From contig CP060262.1 in assembly GCA_022646745.1 (NCBI GenBank), positions 720,001-752,000 on the forward strand: a stretch of DNA of 32,000 nt, written 5' to 3'. Numbering within the stretch: position 1 is the first letter of the stretch; each line of letters begins with the position of its first letter. Below the pieces are notes generated by a model. It had not been told where the DNA came from. It worked only from the letters and a program-made list of their open reading frames with translations, and did not search any database. This document shows positions 2,733 through 25,224 of this stretch, piece after piece. A program made the position numbers and the translations under genes. Source of the DNA: Planctomycetales bacterium. GTDB taxonomy: Bacteria > 4484-113 > JAFGCY01.

Positions 2733-3347
2733 TCAGCCCTTGTGCTTGGCAAACTTCTCGGCGACCTTGTCCCAGTTGATGACGTTCCACCACGCGGCGA
2801 TGTAGTCCGGCCGGCGGTTCTGGTAATTCAGGTAGTAGGCATGCTCCCAGACATCGAGGCCGAGGATCGGCTTGTGTCCGATCATGTGCGGGCTGTCCTG
2901 GTTGGCGGTGCTGCCCACGTGCAGCTTGCCGCTGCCGTCCAGCCCGAGCCAGGCCCAGCCGCTGCCGAAGCGGGTGGCCGCCTGGTTGGAGAAGGCTTCC
3001 TTGAAGCCGTCAAACGAGCCGAACACTGAGTTAATGCCGTCCAGCAGGTCGCCTGACGGGGCACCGCCGCCGCCGGGCTTCATGGTCTTCCAGAACAGGC
3101 TGTGGTTGGCATGCCCGCCGCCGTTGTTGATCACGGCCTGGCGGATGTCCTCAGGGACGTCCTTGATGTTCTTCAGCAGCTCCCACACGCTCTTCTCCTG
3201 CAGCTCGGGATGGCCCTCAAGCGCGGAGTTCAGCTTGGCAACGTATCCCGCATGGTGCTTGCCATGGTGGATCTCCATCGTGCGGGCGTCAATGTAGGGC
3301 TCCAGCGCATCGAATGCGTAGGGCAGATCGGGCAGTACATGTGTCAT
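2733..3347 (-). CDS. sodA: Superoxide dismutase, Mn type (Fe/Mn SOD family)
   Basis: [32 protein letters not shown]..., [11 protein letters not shown] and [18 protein letters not shown] are Fe/Mn SOD signatures with Mn-type residues. Start set at ATG 3347 because GGAGGA (3354-3359) lies 6 nt upstream. The track start at 3389 adds 14 implausible residues. Confidence 0.95.
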
Positions 3348-3465
3348 CTTCATTCCTCCGCCTGTCTGATTGCAGTGGCCATCCCACAACGCGTGCCACC
3401 GCGGGCAGGCTTAATACTATCACCGAGCCTGCTGCGTTGTTTCATTGGCGACGGCCTGGCGGGCT

Positions 3466-5805: not shown

Positions 5806-6489
5806 ATGTCAATCAACACCCTGCCGGACATCACCTCACTGTGGAAGCACAGCGACCCCGCAGCCAGCCAGGCTGCCTTCATGGAACTGATGCCAGGTGC
5901 CGAAACGGGCGGCAACATTTCCTTCAATGTCACCCTGCTCACCCAGGTTGCCCGGGCCCAGGGCCTGCAGCGCAACCATGAAGCTGCCAACGCCAGCCTG
6001 GACCGCGCCAAGCGCATGCTGGACGAAGGCAACCCGCAGGAACTGCAGCATGCACTGGTGAGCTACCTGCTGGAACGCGGCCGGGTCTACCGTGCCAGCG
6101 GTTATGAGGACCGTGCGGAGGACTACTTCCTGGAGGCCTATGAAATGGCCCTGGATGCCGAGGAAATTGCCATGGCAGTCGATGCCGCCCACATGCTGGG
6201 CCTGACACTGCAGGGTAAGGAATCGGTGGACTGGTTCAGCCGAGCCCTGAAGCATGCTTCCTCCGGCATCAATGCGCAGGTCCGTCGGTGGGAAGCCCCG
6301 CTGTGCGAACTGCTGGGCCGGATCTACGCCGAGGAAGGCCGCTCGGACGAGGCAAAGCGCTTGTTTGAGAGTGCGGTAATCCTGCGCAGCCGCCAGCCCG
6401 CACAAGCTCCCGAGAAGGAACTGCAGTGCAGCGGCGTGGCCTGTGCCTGCCCGGAAAGCGTCGCCGACGGCAGCCTGCTCGTGCCCTGA
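5806..6489 (+). CDS. TPR-like helical repeat protein without a signal peptide; paralog of the N-terminal half of the next gene
   Basis: GGAGAA lies 5 nt upstream of the ATG. TSLWKHSDPAASQAAFMELMPGAETGGN..LLTQVARAQGLQ..YLLERGRVY..FLEAYEMAL..DAAHMLG aligns by eye with residues of 6620-8104. Confidence 0.7.
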   Translation: MSINTLPDITSLWKHSDPAASQAAFMELMPGAETGGNISFNVTLLTQVARAQGLQRNHEAANASLDRAKRMLDEGNPQELQHALVSYLLERGRVYRASGYEDRAEDYFLEAYEMALDAEEIAMAVDAAHMLGLTLQGKESVDWFSRALKHASSGINAQVRRWEAPLCELLGRIYAEEGRSDEAKRLFESAVILRSRQPAQAPEKELQCSGVACACPESVADGSLLVP

Positions 6490-6510
6490 GCCTCCCTCAG
6501 CCGCATCATC

Positions 6511-6516
6511 TATAAT
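6511..6516 (+). promoter_or_regulatory. Candidate -10 box (TATAAT) upstream of the TPR-peroxiredoxin gene
   Basis: Perfect TATAAT in a GC-rich spacer, 104 nt upstream of ATG 6620. No convincing -35 box. Confidence 0.3.
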
Positions 6517-6619
6517 CCGCGCAGCGGCCGTTCAATCACGGGGGCCGTCCGGGCCAGCGCCTCTGCGGGGAAGCGCGCCGGCTGATTCCGGGCCAGATGG
6601 CCTTGAAGCGGAGAAGCTG

Positions 6620-8104
6620 ATGCATTGCCAACACCGGCTGCGGACATCACGGTCCCTGTTCAAGATCTGCCTGCTCAGCCTGCTGCTGTTCGCAGCAGTT
6701 GCCAGCCACTCGGCAGCCAATGCCCAGGCCGACATGAAAGCGGAGGACAAGATGGACAGCCACACCCAGCCTGACTTCACGACCCTGTGGGACTTCAATG
6801 ACGCTGCCGGCACCCGGGCGAAATTCGAGGAAATCCTGCCACTGGCCGAGACCAGCGGCAATGCTGCTTACCTCGCTGAACTACTGACACAGATCGCGCG
6901 TACATACGGTCTGCAGGGCAGCTTCGATGAGGCGCATGCCACGCTTGACCGGGTGGAGGGCATGCTCAGTGGCGACGGGATGGACAAGGCCCGCCTGCGC
7001 TACCTGCTGGAGCGCGGCCGTGCCTTCAATTCATCGAAGAAGCCGGAGCTGGCGCAGCCACTGTTCCTCGAAGCATACGAACTGGGTCTGACAACGGAAT
7101 TTGACGGCCTGACGATTGACGCGGCACACATGCTGGGGATCGTCACCAGCGGCGATGAATCACTGGAATGGAACCACAAGGCGCTGGAACTTGCTGAGAA
7201 AACCACTGATGAAAAGGCTGCCAACTGGAAGGGTGCCTTATACAACAACATGGGCTGGACCTACCTGGACAGCCATCGTCCCCAGGAAGCGCTTCATCTG
7301 TTCAAGAAAGGTGTCGATTTCCGCGAGGCGATGGGGCATGGCGAGCAGACCCGGATGATTGCGCACAGGACCGTGGCTCGCGCGCTCAGGGCACTCGGAC
7401 GCAATGACGAAGCGCTGGAGAAGCTCACGTACATCGCTGACAATTTCCCGGCCAGTGCCGAGGACGGCTTCTGGCATGAGGAACTGGGCGAGAATCTGCT
7501 GGCAACCGGTGATGCGGAAGGAGCCAAGGCTGCATTCACAACCGCTGTACCGATGCTGGAAGCGATGGGCTGGATTGCCACTGAATATCCGGGACGGATT
7601 GAACGCCTGCAGGCCATAATTGACACCGGCCTGCCGCTGCTGGAGATTGGCAGCCAGGCACCGGACTTCACCCTGCCCAACCAGGATGGCAAGGATGTCA
7701 GCCTGGCGGAGGTGCTGGCAAGCGGGCCGGTTGTGCTGGCGTTCTACAAGAAGGATGACACCGGTGGTTGAACGGCTGAGCTGGTTGAGTTCAACCGACT
7801 GAATGACGACTTTGACAAGCTTGGCGCAACGGTGGCGGGTATCAGCCCGGACAGCGTGGAGAGCCACGATTCATTCTGCAGTGCGCAGGGCTTTGGCTTT
7901 GACCTGCTGTCTGACGACGGCGGTACTGTCGGCAAGCAATACGGCACGTGGTCTGCGGAGGGCAGCCCGGGACGCGTAAGCTACGTGATCGGACAGGACG
8001 GCTATGTCGCTGGCTTCTTTGCCGGGGCACGTGACTTCGAGCAGCACAGCGCGGCAGCGCTGGAGATCCTCGGGAGAATGGCTGGCAAGGGTGGATCGGA
8101 GTGA
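6620..8104 (+). CDS. Secreted TPR-repeat / peroxiredoxin (Bcp/PrxQ-like, AhpC-TSA family) fusion protein with in-frame TGA (7769-7771) read as selenocysteine
   Basis: ATG 6620 has GGAG 6 nt upstream. Signal peptide MHCQHRLRTSRSLFKICLLSLLLFAAVASHSAANA-QA. The TPR part is paralogous to 5806-6489. It is followed by QAPDFTLPNQDGKDVSLAEVLASGPVVLAFYKKDDTGG-[TGA]-TAELVEFNRLNDDFDKLGATVAGISPDSVESHDSFCSAQGFGFDLLSDDGGTVGKQYG...RVSYVIGQDG. Track ORFs 6443-7771 and 7832-8104 are in the same frame and separated only by this TGA. Confidence 0.75.
7783..7796 (+). promoter_or_regulatory. Candidate bacterial SECIS apical hairpin (GGUUG-AGUU-CAACC) starting 11 nt after UGA 7769-7771
   Basis: 5-bp stem plus a U-G extension (7782/7797) and tetraloop AGUU. 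Same geometry and loop as the hairpin after the second TGA, with one compensatory pair change. Confidence 0.55.
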
Positions 8105-8817
8105 TCCAGATCCTGCAGCATCATGACTGCGAAGGGCCGGCCTATCTGGCAACGATGATGGCGGCGCGCGAGCTGGACTGGAAGGTGCTGCGCGCGGACC
8201 GCGGCGAGATCCCAAAGGACCTCAATGGCCTGGATGCGCTGGTCATCCTCGGCGGTCCGCAGAGTGTGAATCGCACCGACCTGTTTCCCTGGATGCGCCG
8301 TGAGATCGAGATCGTGCGCCTGGCGATTGATGCCGGCCTGCCTGTGCTCGGGATCTGCCTCGGGGCGCAGGTCGTGGCGACTGCCTGCGGGATGCAGGTT
8401 GTCAACTGCGACCACAAGGAGATCGGCTGGTTCCCGGTCAGGCGGCTGGCCAGCGGCAGCGAGGGCTGGTTCGCCGATGTGCCGGAGGAGTTCACATGCT
8501 TCCACTGGCATGGCGAGCGGATGATCCCGCATGAGGACATGCCGTCACTTGCCGCAACGGATGTGACGCCCTGCCAGGCATGCTCCCCGCTGCCGGGAGT
8601 GCTGGCCCTGCAGTTTCACCTCGAGGTGACGGAGGAAGCGATCCGGGCCATGGCCGCCGCATTCCATAAGGAAATGGCGGATGAGCTGATCGGGCTGGAC
8701 AGCCTGCTCTGGGAACTGCCGGAGCAGCTCGCCAACAGCCAGCGACTGGCGGATAATGTGATCGGCCGCTGGTTCGAGCGGGTGATGGCAAGAGATGCGT
8801 TTGGAGAAGCTGAATGA
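8101..8817 (+). CDS. Class I glutamine amidotransferase (GMP-synthase-like GATase1 domain protein)
   Basis: LPVLGICLGAQ (nucleophile Cys) and LQFHLE (His/Glu) motifs. The GTG start overlaps the stop of the upstream gene (GTGA). Its own stop overlaps the next ATG (ATGA), indicating translational coupling. Confidence 0.85.
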   Translation: MIQILQHHDCEGPAYLATMMAARELDWKVLRADRGEIPKDLNGLDALVILGGPQSVNRTDLFPWMRREIEIVRLAIDAGLPVLGICLGAQVVATACGMQVVNCDHKEIGWFPVRRLASGSEGWFADVPEEFTCFHWHGERMIPHEDMPSLAATDVTPCQACSPLPGVLALQFHLEVTEEAIRAMAAAFHKEMADELIGLDSLLWELPEQLANSQRLADNVIGRWFERVMARDAFGEAE

Positions 8818-9275
8818 AACTGCTTGAAGCGGGGAGCGCGGCTCCCGGATTCACGCTGCCCAACCAGCATGGCAGCAATGTCAGCCTGGCGGAGTTCCAG
8901 GGCAGCCAGCCGGTGGTGCTGATCTTCTACCCGAAGGATGCCACGGGGGGTTGAACGGCAGAATTGGCTGAGTTCAGCCGCCGCAAGGCCGAGTTCGATG
9001 AGCATGACGCAGTGCTGCTGGGGATCAGCGGTGACAGTGTGGAAAGTCACAAGGCATTTGCCGAGGACCAGTGCTACCCCTTCAACCTGCTGGCGGATAC
9101 CGACAATGCAGTCCGCAAGGCATACAAGGCGACGGATATCACCGGTCTGCTGCCGGCTCGCGTGACTTATGTAATTGGTCGCGAGGGGAAGATAGCAGGC
9201 TACTGCAACAGCGCGATCGACATGAAGCTGCATGCAGCGCGCGCGCTGGAGATCATCGAGGGTCTAGAGGTCTAA
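8814..9275 (+). CDS. Stand-alone Bcp/PrxQ-like peroxiredoxin with in-frame TGA (8952-8954) read as selenocysteine, 153 codons
   Basis: MKLLEAGSAAPGFTLPNQHGSNVSLAEFQGSQPVVLIFYPKDATGG-[TGA]-TAELAEFSRRKAEFDEHDAVLLGISGDSVESHKAFAEDQCYPFNLLADTDNAVRKAYK...RVTYVIGREGKI. The track shows only the C-terminal part (8964-9275). The N-terminal 46 codons are in the same frame. Confidence 0.8.
8966..8979 (+). promoter_or_regulatory. Candidate bacterial SECIS apical hairpin (GGCUG-AGUU-CAGCC) starting 11 nt after UGA 8952-8954
   Basis: Same offset, stem length and AGUU loop as 7783-7796. The third stem pair is C-G here and U-A there. Confidence 0.55.
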
Positions 9276-11808: not shown

Positions 11809-13743
11809 ATGGGTGATTCAGTAGCAACAAAGATCCTCAAGCAGCATCTCGTCGACGGCGAGATCGCCCCCGGCAATGAGATCGGGATCCGCATCGACCA
11901 GACCCTGCACCAGGACGCCACCGGCACGATGGTGATGCTGGAGCTGGAGGCTATGGGCCTCGATCGCGTGAAGACGGAACTGTCCGTCACCTACGTGGAC
12001 CACAACATGCTGCAAAGCGACTTCCGCAATGCGGATGACCACCGCTACCTGCAAAGCGTGGCCCAGAAGCTCGGCATCCACTACAGCCGTCCCGGCAACG
12101 GGATCTGCCACCAGGTGCACCTTGAGCGCTTCGGCGCACCGGGCCGCACCCTGCTCGGTTCCGACTCGCACACCCCGACCGGCGGCGGACTCGGCATGAT
12201 CTCGATCGGCGCCGGCGGACTGGACGTGGCGGTGGCGGCTGGCGGCGGGGCCTACTACCTGCCCTGCCCGAAGATCATAGGCGTGCGCCTGACAGGCAAG
12301 CTGCAGCCCTGGGTGGCCAGCAAGGACATCATCCTCGAAATGCTGCGCCGCCTGACCGTGAAGGGCGGCTTCGGAAAGATCTTCGAATACCACGGCCCGG
12401 GCATCGAATGCCTGGACGTTCCGGCTCGCAGCACCGTCTGCAACATGGGTGCGGAGCTCGGCGCCACCACCAGCCTGTTCCCGAGTGACTGGCAAACGAA
12501 GAAGTACCTCGAGGCGATGGGCCGCGGTGAGGTCTGGCAGGAACTGATGCCGGACGCCGACGCCGAGTATGACGAACTGATCGAGATCAACCTCGACGAA
12601 CTGGAGCCGCTGATCGCCAAGCCGAGCAACCCGGACCTCGTGGTCCCGGTGCGTGAGGTGGCCGGCACCAAGCTGCACCAGGTCTGCGTCGGCAGCTGCA
12701 CCAACTCGAGCTACCACGACCTGGCAATTTGCGCCAATGTGCTGAAGGACAACATCGTCGCTGACAACGTCAGCATGACGCTCACCCCCGGCAGCCGCAA
12801 CGTATTCAACGAAATCGCCGCCAACGGCATGCTGGCGGACATCATCGCGGCCGGCGCGCGCATCCTCGAAAGCGCATGCGGGCCCTGCATCGGCATGGGC
12901 CAGGCCCCGCCGAGCCAGGGCGTGAGCCTGCGCACCTTCAACCGCAACTTCCTCGGCCGCAGCGGCACGAAGGACGCCTACGTCTACCTCTGCAGCCCGG
13001 AGGTGGCGGCCGTCAGCGCGCTGCGCGGCGAGATCACCGACCCGCGCGACTGGGGCGAGTACCCGGCGGTCGAGATGCCGGAGCAGTACCTCGTTGACGA
13101 CCGGATGATCATCGACCCGCCGGCGGATGCCAGCGCGGTCGTGGTTGAGCGTGGTCCGAACATCGTGCCGCTGGAGGACTTCACGGCCACCCCGGACGGG
13201 ATCGAGGCTGAGGTGATCCTCAAGACCGCTGACAACATCTCCACTGACCACATCATGCCGGCCGGTGCCAAGGTGCTGCCCTACCGCTCGAACATCCCCG
13301 AGATCAGCAAGTTCACCTTCGGCGTGGTTGACAGCGAGTTCCACGACCGCGCGATGGCCATGAAGGAAAACGGCGGCAGCATCATCATCGGTGGCAGCAA
13401 CTACGGCCAGGGCTCGTCGCGCGAGCATGCGGCGATCGCCCCGCGCTACCTCGGCGTGAAGGCCGTGATCGTGAAGGACTTCGCCCGCATCCACTGGAAC
13501 AACCTGATCAACTTCGGCATCGTGCCGCTGCAGTTCGCCGATCCGGCGGACTATGACAGCGTGGCCCAGGGCGACCGGCTCGCGATCCGCGACCTGCACA
13601 GCCAGATCCGCAATGGCAGCGAGGTCAGGGTTGACAACCTGACGAAGGGCACGAGCTTCACCGCCACACATTCGCTCAGCGGACGCCAGGTGCATGTGCT
13701 GCTGGCCGGCGGGCTGATCAACACCGTGAAGGAAGCGAGCTAG
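11809..13743 (+). CDS. Aconitase-family hydratase, ~645-aa 'Aquifex-type' architecture, with a full set of Fe-S ligand cysteines
   Basis: Carries GICHQVHLE, GSDSHT, NMGAELGAT, VGSCTNSSYHD, ACGPCIGMGQ, RTFNRNFLGRSG and GQGSSREHAA. AGGAGA lies 6 nt upstream of the ATG. Confidence 0.9.
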   Translation: MGDSVATKILKQHLVDGEIAPGNEIGIRIDQTLHQDATGTMVMLELEAMGLDRVKTELSVTYVDHNMLQSDFRNADDHRYLQSVAQKLGIHYSRPGNGICHQVHLERFGAPGRTLLGSDSHTPTGGGLGMISIGAGGLDVAVAAGGGAYYLPCPKIIGVRLTGKLQPWVASKDIILEMLRRLTVKGGFGKIFEYHGPGIECLDVPARSTVCNMGAELGATTSLFPSDWQTKKYLEAMGRGEVWQELMPDADAEYDELIEINLDELEPLIAKPSNPDLVVPVREVAGTKLHQVCVGSCTNSSYHDLAICANVLKDNIVADNVSMTLTPGSRNVFNEIAANGMLADIIAAGARILESACGPCIGMGQAPPSQGVSLRTFNRNFLGRSGTKDAYVYLCSPEVAAVSALRGEITDPRDWGEYPAVEMPEQYLVDDRMIIDPPADASAVVVERGPNIVPLEDFTATPDGIEAEVILKTADNISTDHIMPAGAKVLPYRSNIPEISKFTFGVVDSEFHDRAMAMKENGGSIIIGGSNYGQGSSREHAAIAPRYLGVKAVIVKDFARIHWNNLINFGIVPLQFADPADYDSVAQGDRLAIRDLHSQIRNGSEVRVDNLTKGTSFTATHSLSGRQVHVLLAGGLINTVKEAS

Positions 13744-13962: not shown

Positions 13963-15909
13963 ATGGGACTGACAGTTGCCCAGAAGATACTGAAGGAGCA
14001 TCTCGTCGAGGGCGAGATGGTGATCGGCCAGGAAATCGGCATCCGGATTGACCAGTGCCTGCAGCAGGACGCCACTGGCACCATGGTGATGCTGGAGCTG
14101 GAGGCGATGGGCCTGCCGCAGGTGAAGACCGATGTCAGCGTGCAGTATGTCGACCACAACCTCGTGCAGAACGACTACAAGAACGCCGACGACCACCTGT
14201 TCCTGCTGAGCGCCGCGCAGCGCTTCGGCCACTGGTATAGCCGCCCCGGCAACGGCATCAGCCACCCGGTGCACTACGAGCGCTTCGGCAAGCCCGGTGC
14301 CACGATGCTCGGCTCGGACAGCCATACCCCGGCTGCCGGCGGCATGGGCATGATCGCAATCGGTGCCGGCGGCATTGACGTGGCGATGGCCAACGCGGGC
14401 GAGCCCTTCTTCTTCAAGATGCCGAAGATCTGGGGCGTGAAGCTAACCGGCGAGCTGCCTGACTGGGTGTCCAGCAAGGACATCATCCTCGAGATGCTGC
14501 GCCGCCACGACGTGAAGGGCGGGCTGGGCTGCATCATCGAATACTACGGCCCCGGCGTTGACCAGCTCAGTGCAATGGACCGCCACGTGATCTGCAACAT
14601 GGGAGCGGAGCTCGGTGCCACCACCAGCCTGTTCGCCAGTGACGGCGTCACGAAGGAATTCCTGCGCCAGATGGGCCGCGAGGGCGACTGGAAGGAACTG
14701 CTGCCGGATGCCGATGCGAAGTATGACCGCGAGGAGCATATCGAGCTCAGTGAGCTGGAGCCGCTGATCGCCATGCCGACATCCCCGGGCAACGTTAAGA
14801 AGGTCAGCGAGGTCGCCGGCGAGAAGATCTACCAGAGCTACATCGGCAGCAGTGCCAACCCGGAGTACCGCGCGCTCGCAATGGCCAGTGAGGTTGTCAA
14901 GGAGCGCAGCGTGGCTCCCCACGTTTCCTTCGATGTCAACCCGGCCAGCCGCCAGATCCTTGAGAACATCGTCTACGACGGCTACATGACCGCCCTGATC
15001 CACAGCGGCGCGCGCATCCACCAGGCCGGCTGCAACGGCTGCATCGGCATGGGCCAGGCCCCGGCCACGCATGAGATCAGCGTGCGCACCGTGCCGCGCA
15101 ACTTCCCCGGCCGCAGTGGCACGAAGGAGGACAAGGTCTGCCTCGTCAGCCCGGAGACCGCCGTTGCCAGCGCCGTGACCGGTGTGATCACCGACCCGCG
15201 CACGCTCGGCATGCCCTACCCGAAGATCAAGGACCCCGAGAACCCGCGCCTGAACACCGAGCAGCTGCTGGCGCCGCTGCCGCTGGAGGAAGCGCTGAAG
15301 GTCGAGCTGCGCAAGGGCCCGAACGTCAAGAGCCTGCCGCTGTTTGATGAGGTGCCTGACACAATCGAGGTCAAGGTGCTGCTGAAGGTCGGTGACAACA
15401 TCACCACTGACCACATCTCACCGGCCGGCAGCCGCGTGCTGCCCTTCCGCTCGAACATCCCCGCGATCGCCGAGTTCAGCTATGAGCTGATCGACCCGGA
15501 CTACCCGAAGAACGCACTGGCAATCAAGGAGCAGGGCGGGCATGCGATCGTCGGCGGCTTCAACTACGGCCAGGGTTCATCGCGCGAGCATGCCGCCTTG
15601 GCCCCGCGCTACCTCGGCCTGCGCCTCGTGCTGGTGAAGGACTTCGCCCGCATCCACTGGCAGAACCTGATCAACTTCGGCATCCTGCCGCTGCAGTTTG
15701 ACAACGAGGCGGACTATGACGCGCTGGACAACGGCGACGTGCTTCGCATCGAGAACCTGCACCAGCAGGTGACCGACGGGCCGGAGGTGACGGTACGCAA
15801 CATGACCAGGGGCACGGACATCCCGGCGCACCATACGCTCTCGCAGCGCCAGATGGAAGTGCTGCTTAAGGGTGGCCTGATCAACTGGGTCAAGGCGAAG
15901 CATCAGTAG
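13963..15909 (+). CDS. Aconitase-family paralog lacking the first Fe-S ligand cysteine (GSSAN instead of GSCTN)
   Basis: Collinear with 11809-13743 (GSDSHT, NMGAELGAT, GCNGCIGMGQ, RTVPRNFPGRSG, GQGSSREHAA). The differences are IGSSANPEY at the position of VGSCTNSSY and GISHPVHYE at GICHQVHLE. GGGAGAAG lies upstream of the ATG. Confidence 0.9.
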   Translation: MGLTVAQKILKEHLVEGEMVIGQEIGIRIDQCLQQDATGTMVMLELEAMGLPQVKTDVSVQYVDHNLVQNDYKNADDHLFLLSAAQRFGHWYSRPGNGISHPVHYERFGKPGATMLGSDSHTPAAGGMGMIAIGAGGIDVAMANAGEPFFFKMPKIWGVKLTGELPDWVSSKDIILEMLRRHDVKGGLGCIIEYYGPGVDQLSAMDRHVICNMGAELGATTSLFASDGVTKEFLRQMGREGDWKELLPDADAKYDREEHIELSELEPLIAMPTSPGNVKKVSEVAGEKIYQSYIGSSANPEYRALAMASEVVKERSVAPHVSFDVNPASRQILENIVYDGYMTALIHSGARIHQAGCNGCIGMGQAPATHEISVRTVPRNFPGRSGTKEDKVCLVSPETAVASAVTGVITDPRTLGMPYPKIKDPENPRLNTEQLLAPLPLEEALKVELRKGPNVKSLPLFDEVPDTIEVKVLLKVGDNITTDHISPAGSRVLPFRSNIPAIAEFSYELIDPDYPKNALAIKEQGGHAIVGGFNYGQGSSREHAALAPRYLGLRLVLVKDFARIHWQNLINFGILPLQFDNEADYDALDNGDVLRIENLHQQVTDGPEVTVRNMTRGTDIPAHHTLSQRQMEVLLKGGLINWVKAKHQ

Positions 15910-23184: not shown

Positions 23185-24285
23185 TCAGTGCTCGAAACCG
23201 CTGGCCTGCAGCACTCGGTTGCGGCCCAGTTCATCGGTGTACATCAAGCCCTCATCGGCGGGCAGCACCGTGCCGATCCTCGTAAGCGGGACGGGTGATT
23301 CGCGCAGCAGGCGGGCTGTGGATGAGACCGGTGCCGTGAACAGCAGCTGGTAGTCCTCCGCGCTGCCCAGCAGGAACTCACTGAGGCTTGCGAACTCGCG
23401 GGCCTTGCGGTCCGTGCTCATGCGCCCGGGAATCCCGAATGCCGCGGGACCGTTGCCGTTGCTGCCATGTTTCGCCACGCTGCGGCGCTGCCGGGCGAAC
23501 TCCTGCAATTCACCGCTGAAATCGTAGTTCTGCAGGTCAATCTGCATGCCGACGCCGGATGCATCGGCAAGCTGCAGCAGGCACTGCGACAGGCTGTCGG
23601 AAAGGTCCATGCAGGCACTGGCCAGTTCCTCACTGGACAGCCATTGCCCAAGTGCAAGCTGGGGCTTGGGCCTGACATGCGCCTCGCGGGCCAGCACACT
23701 GCCGTCCTCGACACCAGCCTGCAGCTGGTGGAAACCAAGCTGGCTGAGGCCAAGCTCGCCACTGTGCCAGATCGCGTCACCGGGCTTTGCTCCACTGCGG
23801 GTGAGCGGCTGGCTGGCGATGCTGCCGATCATGCTGAAGCTGAGCAGCCACTGCGGGGCACGCACCGTGTCACCACCGATCAGGTCAGCGCCGAATTCCT
23901 TAAGCGCTTCGCCGACGCCGTCCAGCAGCTGGCTGACTTCGGTGTTTTCCGCATCGCGCGGTACCCCGAGGTTTCCCAGCGCATAGACGCATTCCGCGCC
24001 CATCGCCGCCATGTCACTCACGTTGACGGAGACCGCCTTGTAGCCGATCTCGGCCAGGTCCATGTAACGGCGGGAGAAGTGCACGCCTTCCACGAGGATG
24101 TCGGTGGCCAGCACCTGGCTGCAGACGTTGAGCCTGCGGCCCCCGTTCTGCCCCTCCGGCGGCCCGATCACGGCGGCGTCATCACCGAGGCCGACCAGCA
24201 GCCGGTTGTTCGTGCAGCTGAAGCGGCGCCTGATCTGGCTGATGATGCCTTCCTCGTTTACCTGTGCCTCACTCACGCTGCTCAA
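23185..24285 (-). CDS. thiL: Thiamine-monophosphate kinase (PurM/AIR-synthase-related superfamily)
   Basis: GLGDDAAVI, ATDILVEGVHF, NVSDMAAMGA and GSAEDYQLLFTA match the ThiL pattern. TTG start with GAAGG upstream. It is about 40 aa longer than typical ThiL proteins. Confidence 0.8.
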   Translation of the reverse strand: MSSVSEAQVNEEGIISQIRRRFSCTNNRLLVGLGDDAAVIGPPEGQNGGRRLNVCSQVLATDILVEGVHFSRRYMDLAEIGYKAVSVNVSDMAAMGAECVYALGNLGVPRDAENTEVSQLLDGVGEALKEFGADLIGGDTVRAPQWLLSFSMIGSIASQPLTRSGAKPGDAIWHSGELGLSQLGFHQLQAGVEDGSVLAREAHVRPKPQLALGQWLSSEELASACMDLSDSLSQCLLQLADASGVGMQIDLQNYDFSGELQEFARQRRSVAKHGSNGNGPAAFGIPGRMSTDRKAREFASLSEFLLGSAEDYQLLFTAPVSSTARLLRESPVPLTRIGTVLPADEGLMYTDELGRNRVLQASGFEH

Positions 24286-24387
24286 TTGCGCCTTCCCCGG
24301 GAATCCGTAATTACTTGCATTGCATCTTACCCCGAAACCTACTATCGGTCAGAAATCGCCGGAAATTACTCTGTTTCCTATAATTGG

Positions 24388-25224
24388 ATGGTGCAGCATC
24401 GAAATGAATACCTGGCCTGGGCCACTGAAGCGGCGGCTTACATCGCCCGCAGCGCAGGCTGCGAGGGCTTTGACACGGTCGTGCAATGCGGCAGCGGGCT
24501 CAATGGCCTGATAGACGCGGTGCTGCCGGAGGGCGGCCGGATCCCGATGGAGGACATCCCGCATTTCCCTGCATCACGGGTGAAGGGGCATGGACGTGAG
24601 GTGATCCACGGGCAGGTAAGGGGCCGCAATGTGATGGTGCTGGCCGGCCGGATCCACCTCTACGAAGGGCATGATCCGCTCACCGCCGGCTTCCCCGCCG
24701 CCCTGGCACATGCCAGCGGGGCACGCCGATTCATCCTGACCAATGCCGCCGGCGGCCTGAACCAGCACTTCGTGCAGGGCAGCGTGATGATGATCACCGA
24801 CTTCATCAACTTCCAGGGGGATAACGCGCTGGCCCACATGCTGACCGACGAGGCCGCCCAGCGTTTCGTCGACCCGAAACCCGCCACCGACCTGCGCCAG
24901 GGCCAGCTGCTAGCCCGCCAGCTGCAGAAGGCCGGGCTGAAGGTCAACCAGGGCACATACATCGGCGTGCGCGGCCCGATCTATGAGACCCGCGCCGAAC
25001 TGGCAATGATGCGCTCCTGGGGCGCAGATGCGATCGGCATGAGCACGATCCCGGAACTGACGGTCTGCCATGCCTTCGGCCTGCCCGCGCTGGGCGTGAG
25101 CGTGATCACCAACGAATGCTTCAAGGATGCCCCGGTGACGCATGGCGAGGTGGTTGACGTTGGCAGCCAGGTCTCGCCGGCACTGGGCACCGCATTTCGT
25201 GCATTCATCGAGGACCTGCCATGA
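24388..25224 (+). CDS. Purine nucleoside phosphorylase, trimeric (inosine/guanosine/xanthosine) family
   Basis: VVQCGSGLNGL, HFPASRVKGHGREVIHG, LAGRIHLYEGH, ILTNAAGGLN, GPIYETRAELAMMRSWGADAIGMSTIPE and ITNE. The track ORF 23467-25224 was trimmed because its first 307 codons are the antisense of thiL. Confidence 0.88.
   Translation: MVQHRNEYLAWATEAAAYIARSAGCEGFDTVVQCGSGLNGLIDAVLPEGGRIPMEDIPHFPASRVKGHGREVIHGQVRGRNVMVLAGRIHLYEGHDPLTAGFPAALAHASGARRFILTNAAGGLNQHFVQGSVMMITDFINFQGDNALAHMLTDEAAQRFVDPKPATDLRQGQLLARQLQKAGLKVNQGTYIGVRGPIYETRAELAMMRSWGADAIGMSTIPELTVCHAFGLPALGVSVITNECFKDAPVTHGEVVDVGSQVSPALGTAFRAFIEDLP

Follow-up and report, generated by a model that had tools for sequence, protein, structure and literature searches.

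In this work we describe a 32,000-nucleotide (nt) stretch of DNA from a Planctomycetales bacterium (GenBank assembly GCA_022646745.1, contig CP060262.1, positions 720,001 to 752,000 of the forward strand), called the window below and numbered from its first letter, and within it the gene at 8814-9275, designated Prx2. This is very probably a functional selenocysteine-encoding peroxiredoxin gene of the BCP-like branch, which gene callers have mistakenly split at an in-frame TGA. We infer the insertion of selenocysteine (Sec) from comparative criteria, namely a Sec/cysteine (Cys) pair of orthologues, a conserved UGA, purifying selection and a candidate selenocysteine insertion sequence (SECIS). 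The gene and its elements are:

8803-8806, plus strand: Shine-Dalgarno-like GGAG, 7 nt 5' of ATG 8814, read from the sequence.
8814-9275, plus strand: Prx2, coding sequence of a stand-alone BCP/PrxQ-like peroxiredoxin, 153 codons, with TGA at codon 47 predicted to be read as selenocysteine.
8952-8954, plus strand: putative Sec-UGA codon (U47), occupying the place of the peroxidatic Cys in PxxxTxxC; TGA in all 8 Sec-type Prx2 lineages, TGC in AC1.30.
8965-8980, plus strand: candidate apical hairpin of a bacterial SECIS, UGGCUG-AGUU-CAGCCG, 6 base pairs (bp), loop at 8971-8974.

The frame of Prx2 opens with ATG 8814-8816, is interrupted solely by TGA 8952-8954 and ends with TAA 9273-9275. Around the TGA the translation reads ...QPVVLIFYPKDATGG-TGA-TAELAEFSRRKAEF..., the stretch ahead of it being MKLLEAGSAAPGFTLPNQHGSNVSLAEFQGSQPVVLIFYPKDATGG and the stretch behind it TAELAEFSRRKAEF. 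An earlier reading of the letters alone (the initial annotation) had traced this frame from an ATGA overlap with the upstream gene, through the TGA, into the open reading frame (ORF) 8964-9275, and these coordinates proved exact; the mechanically listed ORF (TTG start, 103 amino acids) is the downstream part of Prx2. With Cys put in for the stop, the 153-residue product matched the Pfam family AhpC-TSA (PF00578) end to end and across the TGA (residues 7-128 on positions 2-122 of the 124-position profile; E 6e-36; 123.6 bits, with the cutoff at 26). Codon 47 is matched by Cys in over 100 homologues and aligns to the peroxidatic position of BCPs in the Protein Data Bank (PDB), and all full-length homologues inspected carry Cys in this column; the TGA thus lies at the catalytic site, as had been proposed. 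The active-site motif, P40-K-D-A-T44-G-G-U47 (PxxxTxxU), lines up with ..PKDDTPG[C/S]T.. in the structures of BCPs, and the active-site arginine R116 (LPARVTYVI) aligns with LPARITFVI of PDB entry 3drn and is kept in all orthologues. Cys homologues read DDTPGCT, which bears out the remark that Gly-Gly stands here where Pro-Gly is usual. A second gene with TGA at the same site had also been reported, and it is indeed present a short distance upstream:

6620-8104, plus strand: Prx1, a fusion of signal peptide, tetratricopeptide repeats (TPR) and peroxiredoxin, with in-frame TGA 7769-7771 in the context ..FYKKDDTGG-TGA-TAELVEF; identified from its Pfam match, the callers' split and its orthologues.

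The conservation of the TGA was followed in related genomes, which are labelled either as candidate phylum UBP7 (HKST-UBA01, HKST-UBA03) or as 'Planctomycetales bacterium'; the aeration tank of the Shatin saline wastewater plant is the reported source of three UBP7 metagenome-assembled genomes (MAGs; PMC8495973). The identical locus was found in GCA_020440665.1 (contig JAGRNS010000031.1) and in at least 14 independently assembled contigs of a metagenome time series, and TGA occupies codon 47 in eight lineages, i.e. the window and seven further orthologous UBP7 lineages, with the following amino acid identities to Prx2:

L015 (UBP7 HKST-UBA01): TGA orthologue, 96%.
L007-10: TGA orthologue, 84%.
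L011: TGA orthologue, 81%.
L016 (HKST-UBA03): TGA orthologue, 79%.
L017 (Ww346): TGA orthologue, 75%.
L012: TGA orthologue, 70%.
L013: TGA orthologue, 65%.

The syntenic orthologue of AC1.30 (L014 = L018, 72% identity) carries TGC (Cys) at this codon, and Prx2 is of the Sec type everywhere sampled save in this genome. Because the locus is present in at least 14 contigs and the TGA recurs in seven other lineages, chance and sequencing error can be ruled out, and the identities of 65-96% among the TGA orthologues exclude one contaminating sequence shared between assemblies.

Selection was measured on pairs of Prx2 orthologues as the ratio of nonsynonymous to synonymous divergence (dN/dS; Nei-Gojobori method on a codon alignment), with codons 1-46 taken as upstream and codons 48-150 as downstream of the TGA. 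The ratio was 0.11-0.39 upstream and 0.09-0.27 downstream, at synonymous divergences (dS) of about 0.5-2.5. The sequence that follows the TGA is therefore as constrained as the sequence that precedes it, as the initial annotation had expected. Sec-type Prx1 orthologues gave downstream values of 0.10-0.18; between the paralogues Prx1 and Prx2 of the window the ratio was about 0.5 on both sides of the TGA, with dS near saturation. These results bear directly on the possibility that Prx2 is a pseudogene or an assembly or sequencing error, that is, an ordinary Cys-peroxiredoxin struck by a nonsense mutation, with a decaying downstream ORF. The splitting of the gene by callers in every assembly and the lack of Sec-machinery genes in the window and related loci speak for such a reading. 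However, the same TGA has been held in eight lineages over dS values of 0.5-2.5, the downstream part evolves at a dN/dS of 0.09-0.27 and has acquired no further stops or frameshifts, the locus is identical in at least 14 independent contigs, and the supposed mutation would have had to hit precisely the codon of the catalytic Cys, and to do so in two paralogues. Together with the TGC of the syntenic AC1.30 gene and a SECIS-like hairpin at canonical distance, this leaves decay of the gene extremely improbable, in agreement with what had been argued from the letters alone.

The calls themselves admit another explanation. Gene callers split Prx2 into pieces of 46 and 103 (or 97) amino acids in every assembly, and 9 nt beyond the TGA there is a TTG start, so that the two annotated ORFs could be taken at face value as a split protein, in which a 46-residue N-terminal peptide and a C-terminal fragment begun at TTG 8964 would assemble non-covalently. 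Nevertheless, such a product would be devoid of the catalytic residue and of residues 47-50, the internal start varies among orthologues (the callers chose fragments of 103, 97 and 95 amino acids), no conserved Shine-Dalgarno-like motif accompanies the internal start, and the stretch from TGA to TTG is conserved as coding sequence (T-A-E). We consider this arrangement hardly credible.

The hairpin at 8965-8980 begins ten nt past the UGA and places its loop 16 nt from it. According to the bacterial SECIS (bSECIS) model (PMC13188914, Fig. 2A), such an element has a loop of 3-9 nt with G as its first or second nucleotide, a stem of 4-16 bp, a distance of 16-37 nt from UGA to loop and a minimum free energy of at most -7.5 kcal/mol. 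The Prx2 hairpin agrees with the model on all four points: its loop AGUU has G as second nucleotide and U as third, its stem is of 6-8 bp, the distance is 16 nt and the free energy is -8.4 kcal/mol in the window; three lineages have a longer stem of 7-8 bp, and free energies range from -8.4 to -15.5 kcal/mol. The minimal hairpin of the Escherichia coli fdhF element starts 11 nt after its UGA, and the G-U of its loop is contacted by SelB. Sec-type genes share the consensus GGU UGA ANN GCN GAR YUG GCU GAG UUC AGC CG, and across the eight Sec-type Prx2 genes no synonymous position of the hairpin changes, in contrast to the freely varying codons that immediately precede it. In AC1.30, the orthologue with Cys reads GCACGAAUUCAACC at this site and cannot form the hairpin. 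Sec-type Prx1 genes share it as well; three of them read UGGUUG-AGUU-CAACCG, a double change from C-G to U-A that needed two amino acid replacements (Ala to Val and Ser to Asn), and in the window this version lies as follows:

7782-7797, plus strand: hairpin of Prx1, UGGUUG-AGUU-CAACCG, of the same type as that of Prx2.

Pairing of the hairpin holds in all 12 sequences (100% of cells), and only 2 of 500 shuffles reached its covariation score.

It could be supposed that the UGA is read through without selenium, either by a near-cognate or suppressor tRNA inserting Trp, Cys or Arg or by a tRNA(Sec) charged with Cys. The idea draws some plausibility from homologues, the AC1.30 orthologue among them, in which Cys at this site is fully functional, and from the lack of Sec-machinery genes in the window and related loci. 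Against it stand the bSECIS-fitting hairpin at canonical spacing, which is gone from the Cys orthologue, the long retention of TGA in two paralogues although TGC is one mutation away, and the use of TGA as the normal stop of 12 of the 22 neighbouring genes; we judge this explanation to be quite unlikely. Genome-wide reassignment of UGA was also considered and rejected, since TGA, the commonest ordinary stop in the window, ends 12 of its 22 predicted genes. A composition-filtered scan of the window for other in-frame TGAs flagged 8952 alone; the scan is insensitive, having missed the known Prx1 TGA at 7769.

Several observations weigh against the selenocysteine interpretation and must be set beside the evidence above. 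Two sweeps with Pfam and one with NCBIfam over 20+ ORFs of the window found no selA, selB, selC or selD, and none of these genes was seen in about 60 kb of related UBP7 DNA. No tRNA was detected in the window by ARAGORN, nor any Rfam match at gathering thresholds, and ARAGORN found no tRNA-Sec in 12 related loci. The sole AIRS-family gene of the window, bearing AIRS and AIRS_C tags, is a ThiL and not a SelD: the ORF at 23185-24285 on the minus strand was tried as a SelD candidate and rejected, with 240.7 bits against a cutoff of 184 for the ThiL model TIGR01379 and 61 bits against a cutoff of 125 for the SelD model. The hairpin stem is nearly invariant, and the support from covariation is real but thin, because the one compensatory pair probably stems from a single evolutionary event. 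Other parts of Prx2, for example codons 13-21, likewise show runs of invariant codons, so that synonymous-site conservation taken alone is weak, and it was discarded as stand-alone evidence for the hairpin. Finally, RNAalifold prefers a competing structure that contains the UGA and is as conserved as the hairpin:

8949-8979, plus strand: alternative helix, mutually exclusive with the hairpin, formed by GGUUGAAC (8949-8956, holding the UGA) and GUUCAGCC (8972-8979); RNAalifold consensus.

This helix is paired in 97.9% of cells and shows zero compensatory changes. It would melt with a ribosome positioned on the UGA, and it could act by sequestering the UGA or as the equivalent of a lower stem. 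A counterpart exists in Prx1, where 7766-7773 faces 7789-7796.

Regarding the origin of the two TGAs, the initial annotation had described that of Prx2 as a second, independent one. A second TGA is certainly present; its evolutionary independence is doubtful and probably wrong, because Prx1 and Prx2 share both the codon context and the hairpin (GGU-UGA-ACN-GCN-GAR-YUG-GYU-GAG-UUC-ARC-CG). The two TGAs of the window are probably homologous, through common descent or sequence exchange, with no separate inventions. Recent gene conversion between Prx2 and Prx1 as the source of the shared UGA and SECIS was examined and is not supported: the central blocks fall into three groups (Sec-type Prx1, Cys-type Prx1 and Sec-type Prx2) that are just 61-73% identical to each other, and any exchange between the two genes must therefore be old.

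The distribution of Sec and Cys forms is patchy. Prx1 is of the Sec type in the window species, Ww346 (L017), L029 and L030/31, and of the Cys type (FYPKDHTGGCTLEL) in HKST-UBA01 (L015), HKST-UBA03 (L016) and AC1.30 (L018). When Prx2 of HKST-UBA03 (Sec, L016:10110-10290) was compared with that of AC1.30 (Cys, L018:10110-10290), a block of about 180 nt was 57-73% identical whereas the sequence outside nt ~110-290 of the gene, flanks included, was 93-100% identical; the block holds codon 47 and the SECIS. A donor for the AC1.30 Cys block is absent from the sampled sequences. Similarly, between the Prx1 genes (6500-8100) of the window species (Sec) and its near-identical relative HKST-UBA01 (Cys), the flanks are 97-100% identical and the gene 52-85%, with a 100% identical island at ~7600-7720 inside the divergent gene. 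As judged from these alignments, a divergent (Sec-type versus Cys-type) Prx1 allele has been recombined in. Since changes of state coincide with mosaic sequence, the Sec/Cys switch appears to proceed by block replacement. Therefore, we tentatively suggest, as a proposal we rate somewhat below even, that in the UBP7 clade the Sec/Cys state of both paralogues has been switched by recombination of a short block carrying codon and SECIS together, rather than by point mutations, a view drawn from few genomes. If this were true generally, UGA plus SECIS would be a portable module, and lineages could gain or drop the selenium dependence of an antioxidant enzyme in one step.

Prx1 also offers observations on the active site itself. 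It has K where Prx2 has the active-site Pro (P40) and holds a conserved Cys at +35 (FCxAQG). All Sec-type TPR-Prx alleles (the window, L017, L029 and L030/L031) replace the Pro of PxxxTxxC, which is otherwise universal, by Lys or Ala (FYKKDDTGGU or FYAKDMTGGU), whereas Cys-type alleles all retain it (FYPKDHTGGC). Loss of this Pro in Sec-type Prx1 alleles suggests that Sec may relax the constraint on it. In the same Sec-type alleles the C-terminal conserved Cys is replaced (GFCASSS to GFFAGAR), and the Cys at +35 is retained (FCSAQG).

Sec-containing peroxiredoxins are an established family of bacterial selenoproteins, belonging to PF00578, bearing TxxU or PxxxTxxU and having undergone repeated conversions from Cys to Sec (PMC13188914, PMC1794560). 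Zhang et al. (2006; PMC1794560) listed 12 examples and five Cys-to-Sec conversions, and the thioredoxin-dependent, Sec-containing PrxU of Eubacterium acidaminophilum (Sohling et al., 2001) is the sole member characterised biochemically (PMC13188914). Prx2 is a further member of this family, in a new phylum, which will not surprise the specialist: it has the same Pfam domain, Sec predicted in place of the peroxidatic Cys in PxxxTxxU, a SECIS-like hairpin inside the coding sequence right downstream, and close Cys homologues, in line with the repeated Cys/Sec switches of the family. It differs from the catalogued examples in its source (an aerated activated-sludge tank; candidate phylum UBP7), in its BCP/PrxQ-like branch, in having Gly-Gly (or Ser-Gly) rather than Pro-Gly before Sec, in the paralogous Sec-type TPR fusion encoded in the same operon, and in that a replaced block, and no point change, separates its Sec form from its Cys form. 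It belongs to another subfamily than PrxU and is no equivalog of it, scoring 48.9 bits against a cutoff of 270 and matching part of the 233-position model NF040737 (peroxi_PrxU).

The best sequence matches of Prx2 are BCP/PrxQ proteins, namely E. coli Bcp (PRK09437), Sulfolobus Bcp1 (3drn) and Xanthomonas BCP (3gkk/5iiz), with which it shares a length of about 150-160 amino acids, the fold family and the conserved Thr and Arg. PDB entry 3drn matches residues 4-149 (E 4e-24). Since the best subfamily scores in NCBIfam fall under the equivalog cutoffs (84 bits against 140 for PRK09437/Bcp, NF006960; 79.9 against 260 for PrxQ, NF053650) and the top PDB hits are BCPs, Prx2 is best described as BCP-like and not as a curated equivalog. 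Unlike BCP/PrxQ proteins, it would use Sec instead of Cys, and it has none of their resolving Cys residues, which stand in CxxxxC or about +35 (the alpha-3 type). There is no Cys at +5 (U-T-A-E-L-A-E), which separates Prx2 from the CxxxxC-type BCPs, and no conserved Cys near +35; C131 is its sole clade-conserved Cys. From this arrangement of residues, Prx2 may behave as a 1-Cys (1-Sec) type or else use C131.

Other Sec-containing members of the superfamily were compared as well. The UxxC/UxxU thiol:disulfide oxidoreductases and the marine Prx-like selenoproteins share the superfamily fold and the presence of Sec. A metagenome scan returned only distant Sec-Prx-like loci (31-38% identity) and no further UBP7 orthologues. 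Those with W-U-PPC (L027/28) or FGNN-U-TRE (L020/21/24-26), 31-38% identical to Prx2, are of the thioredoxin-like UxxC type or have no PxxxT, in contrast to the true PxxxTxxU of Prx2. A Thermomicrobiales MAG (L019) has in-frame TGA at the same column (PKDATSG-TGA-TDQL); in marine Alphaproteobacteria (L020/L021/L024-L026) the genes read FPRAFGNN-TGA-TREAQGF, with no PxxxT motif; and L027/L028 read FRSAVW-TGA-PPC. Each of these in-frame-TGA Prx-like genes has a downstream hairpin of its own.

Based on these comparisons, we hypothesize that the product of Prx2 is a cytoplasmic thiol peroxidase of the BCP/PrxQ type with Sec as its peroxidatic residue. When a ribosome reaches UGA 8952-8954, the hairpin 10-11 nt downstream (8965-8980, loop AGUU) would be located at the mRNA entrance, where it would recruit SelB-GTP-Sec-tRNA(Sec), so that Sec would be inserted and termination avoided. 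Peroxide would then be reduced by U47 with the support of P40, T44 and R116, and an external thiol, or possibly Cys131 (conserved in the clade), would presumably resolve the resulting selenenic acid.

Prx2 and the TPR-fused Prx1 are called as two truncated fragments each in every public assembly, with Prx1 annotated as genes of 383 and 107 amino acids, and the antioxidant repertoire and selenium requirement of the uncultured phylum UBP7 are invisible in databases as a consequence. The present analysis adds this candidate phylum of saline activated sludge to the likely users of Sec and places a putative pair of Sec-peroxiredoxins in an organism from an aerated reactor. Moreover, Sec and Cys alleles now form a clean natural series against genomic backgrounds that are otherwise near-identical, and this series should help in asking what a peroxiredoxin gains from Sec and how the switches occur. 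Current understanding is not overturned, as Sec-peroxiredoxins have been known since 2001 and are present in every bacterial selenoproteome survey.

Between the two peroxiredoxin genes lies a third gene:

8101-8817, plus strand: class-I glutamine amidotransferase gene, overlapping both Prx genes; Pfam GATase, E 2.5e-18.

Its score against the NCBIfam model PRK07053 is 142.7 bits, under the cutoff of that model. It is flanked by Prx1 and Prx2 with a 4-nt overlap at each junction, and at the second one ATG 8814-8816 of Prx2 overlaps its TGA stop at 8815-8817 (ATGA), an arrangement that implies translational coupling of Prx2 to the upstream gene. The adjacency of amidotransferase and Prx2 is conserved in related loci; Prx1, the amidotransferase gene and Prx2 belong to the same operon, of which Prx2 is the last gene. 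In AC1.30, genes for an HNH nuclease and an AAA_15/AAA_21 ATPase (L014:7200-9130, minus strand) are inserted between TPR-Prx and the amidotransferase gene, breaking the gene overlap seen in all other genomes; they resemble a defence-type pair.

Upstream of the operon, all syntenic loci have a Fe/Mn superoxide dismutase gene (2733-3389, minus strand) and a gene for a second small TPR protein (5806-6489, plus strand), which suggests a conserved oxidative-stress neighbourhood. A co-oriented cluster of TPR-Prx(U), amidotransferase and Prx(U) genes near a Fe/Mn superoxide dismutase gene fits an oxidative-stress role in an organism of aerated saline activated sludge.

Further downstream in the window, two full-length paralogues of the aconitase family stand in tandem (11809-13743 and 13963-15909, plus strand; 644 and 648 amino acids). 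The tandem is kept in related genomes, and the pyruvate dehydrogenase E3, E2 and E1 genes come after it on the opposite strand. The ORF of 585 amino acids at 23467-25224 on the plus strand is largely spurious; the real genes there are the ThiL gene at 23185-24285 on the minus strand (366 amino acids) and a PNP_UDP_1 phosphorylase gene (278 amino acids, start near 24388).

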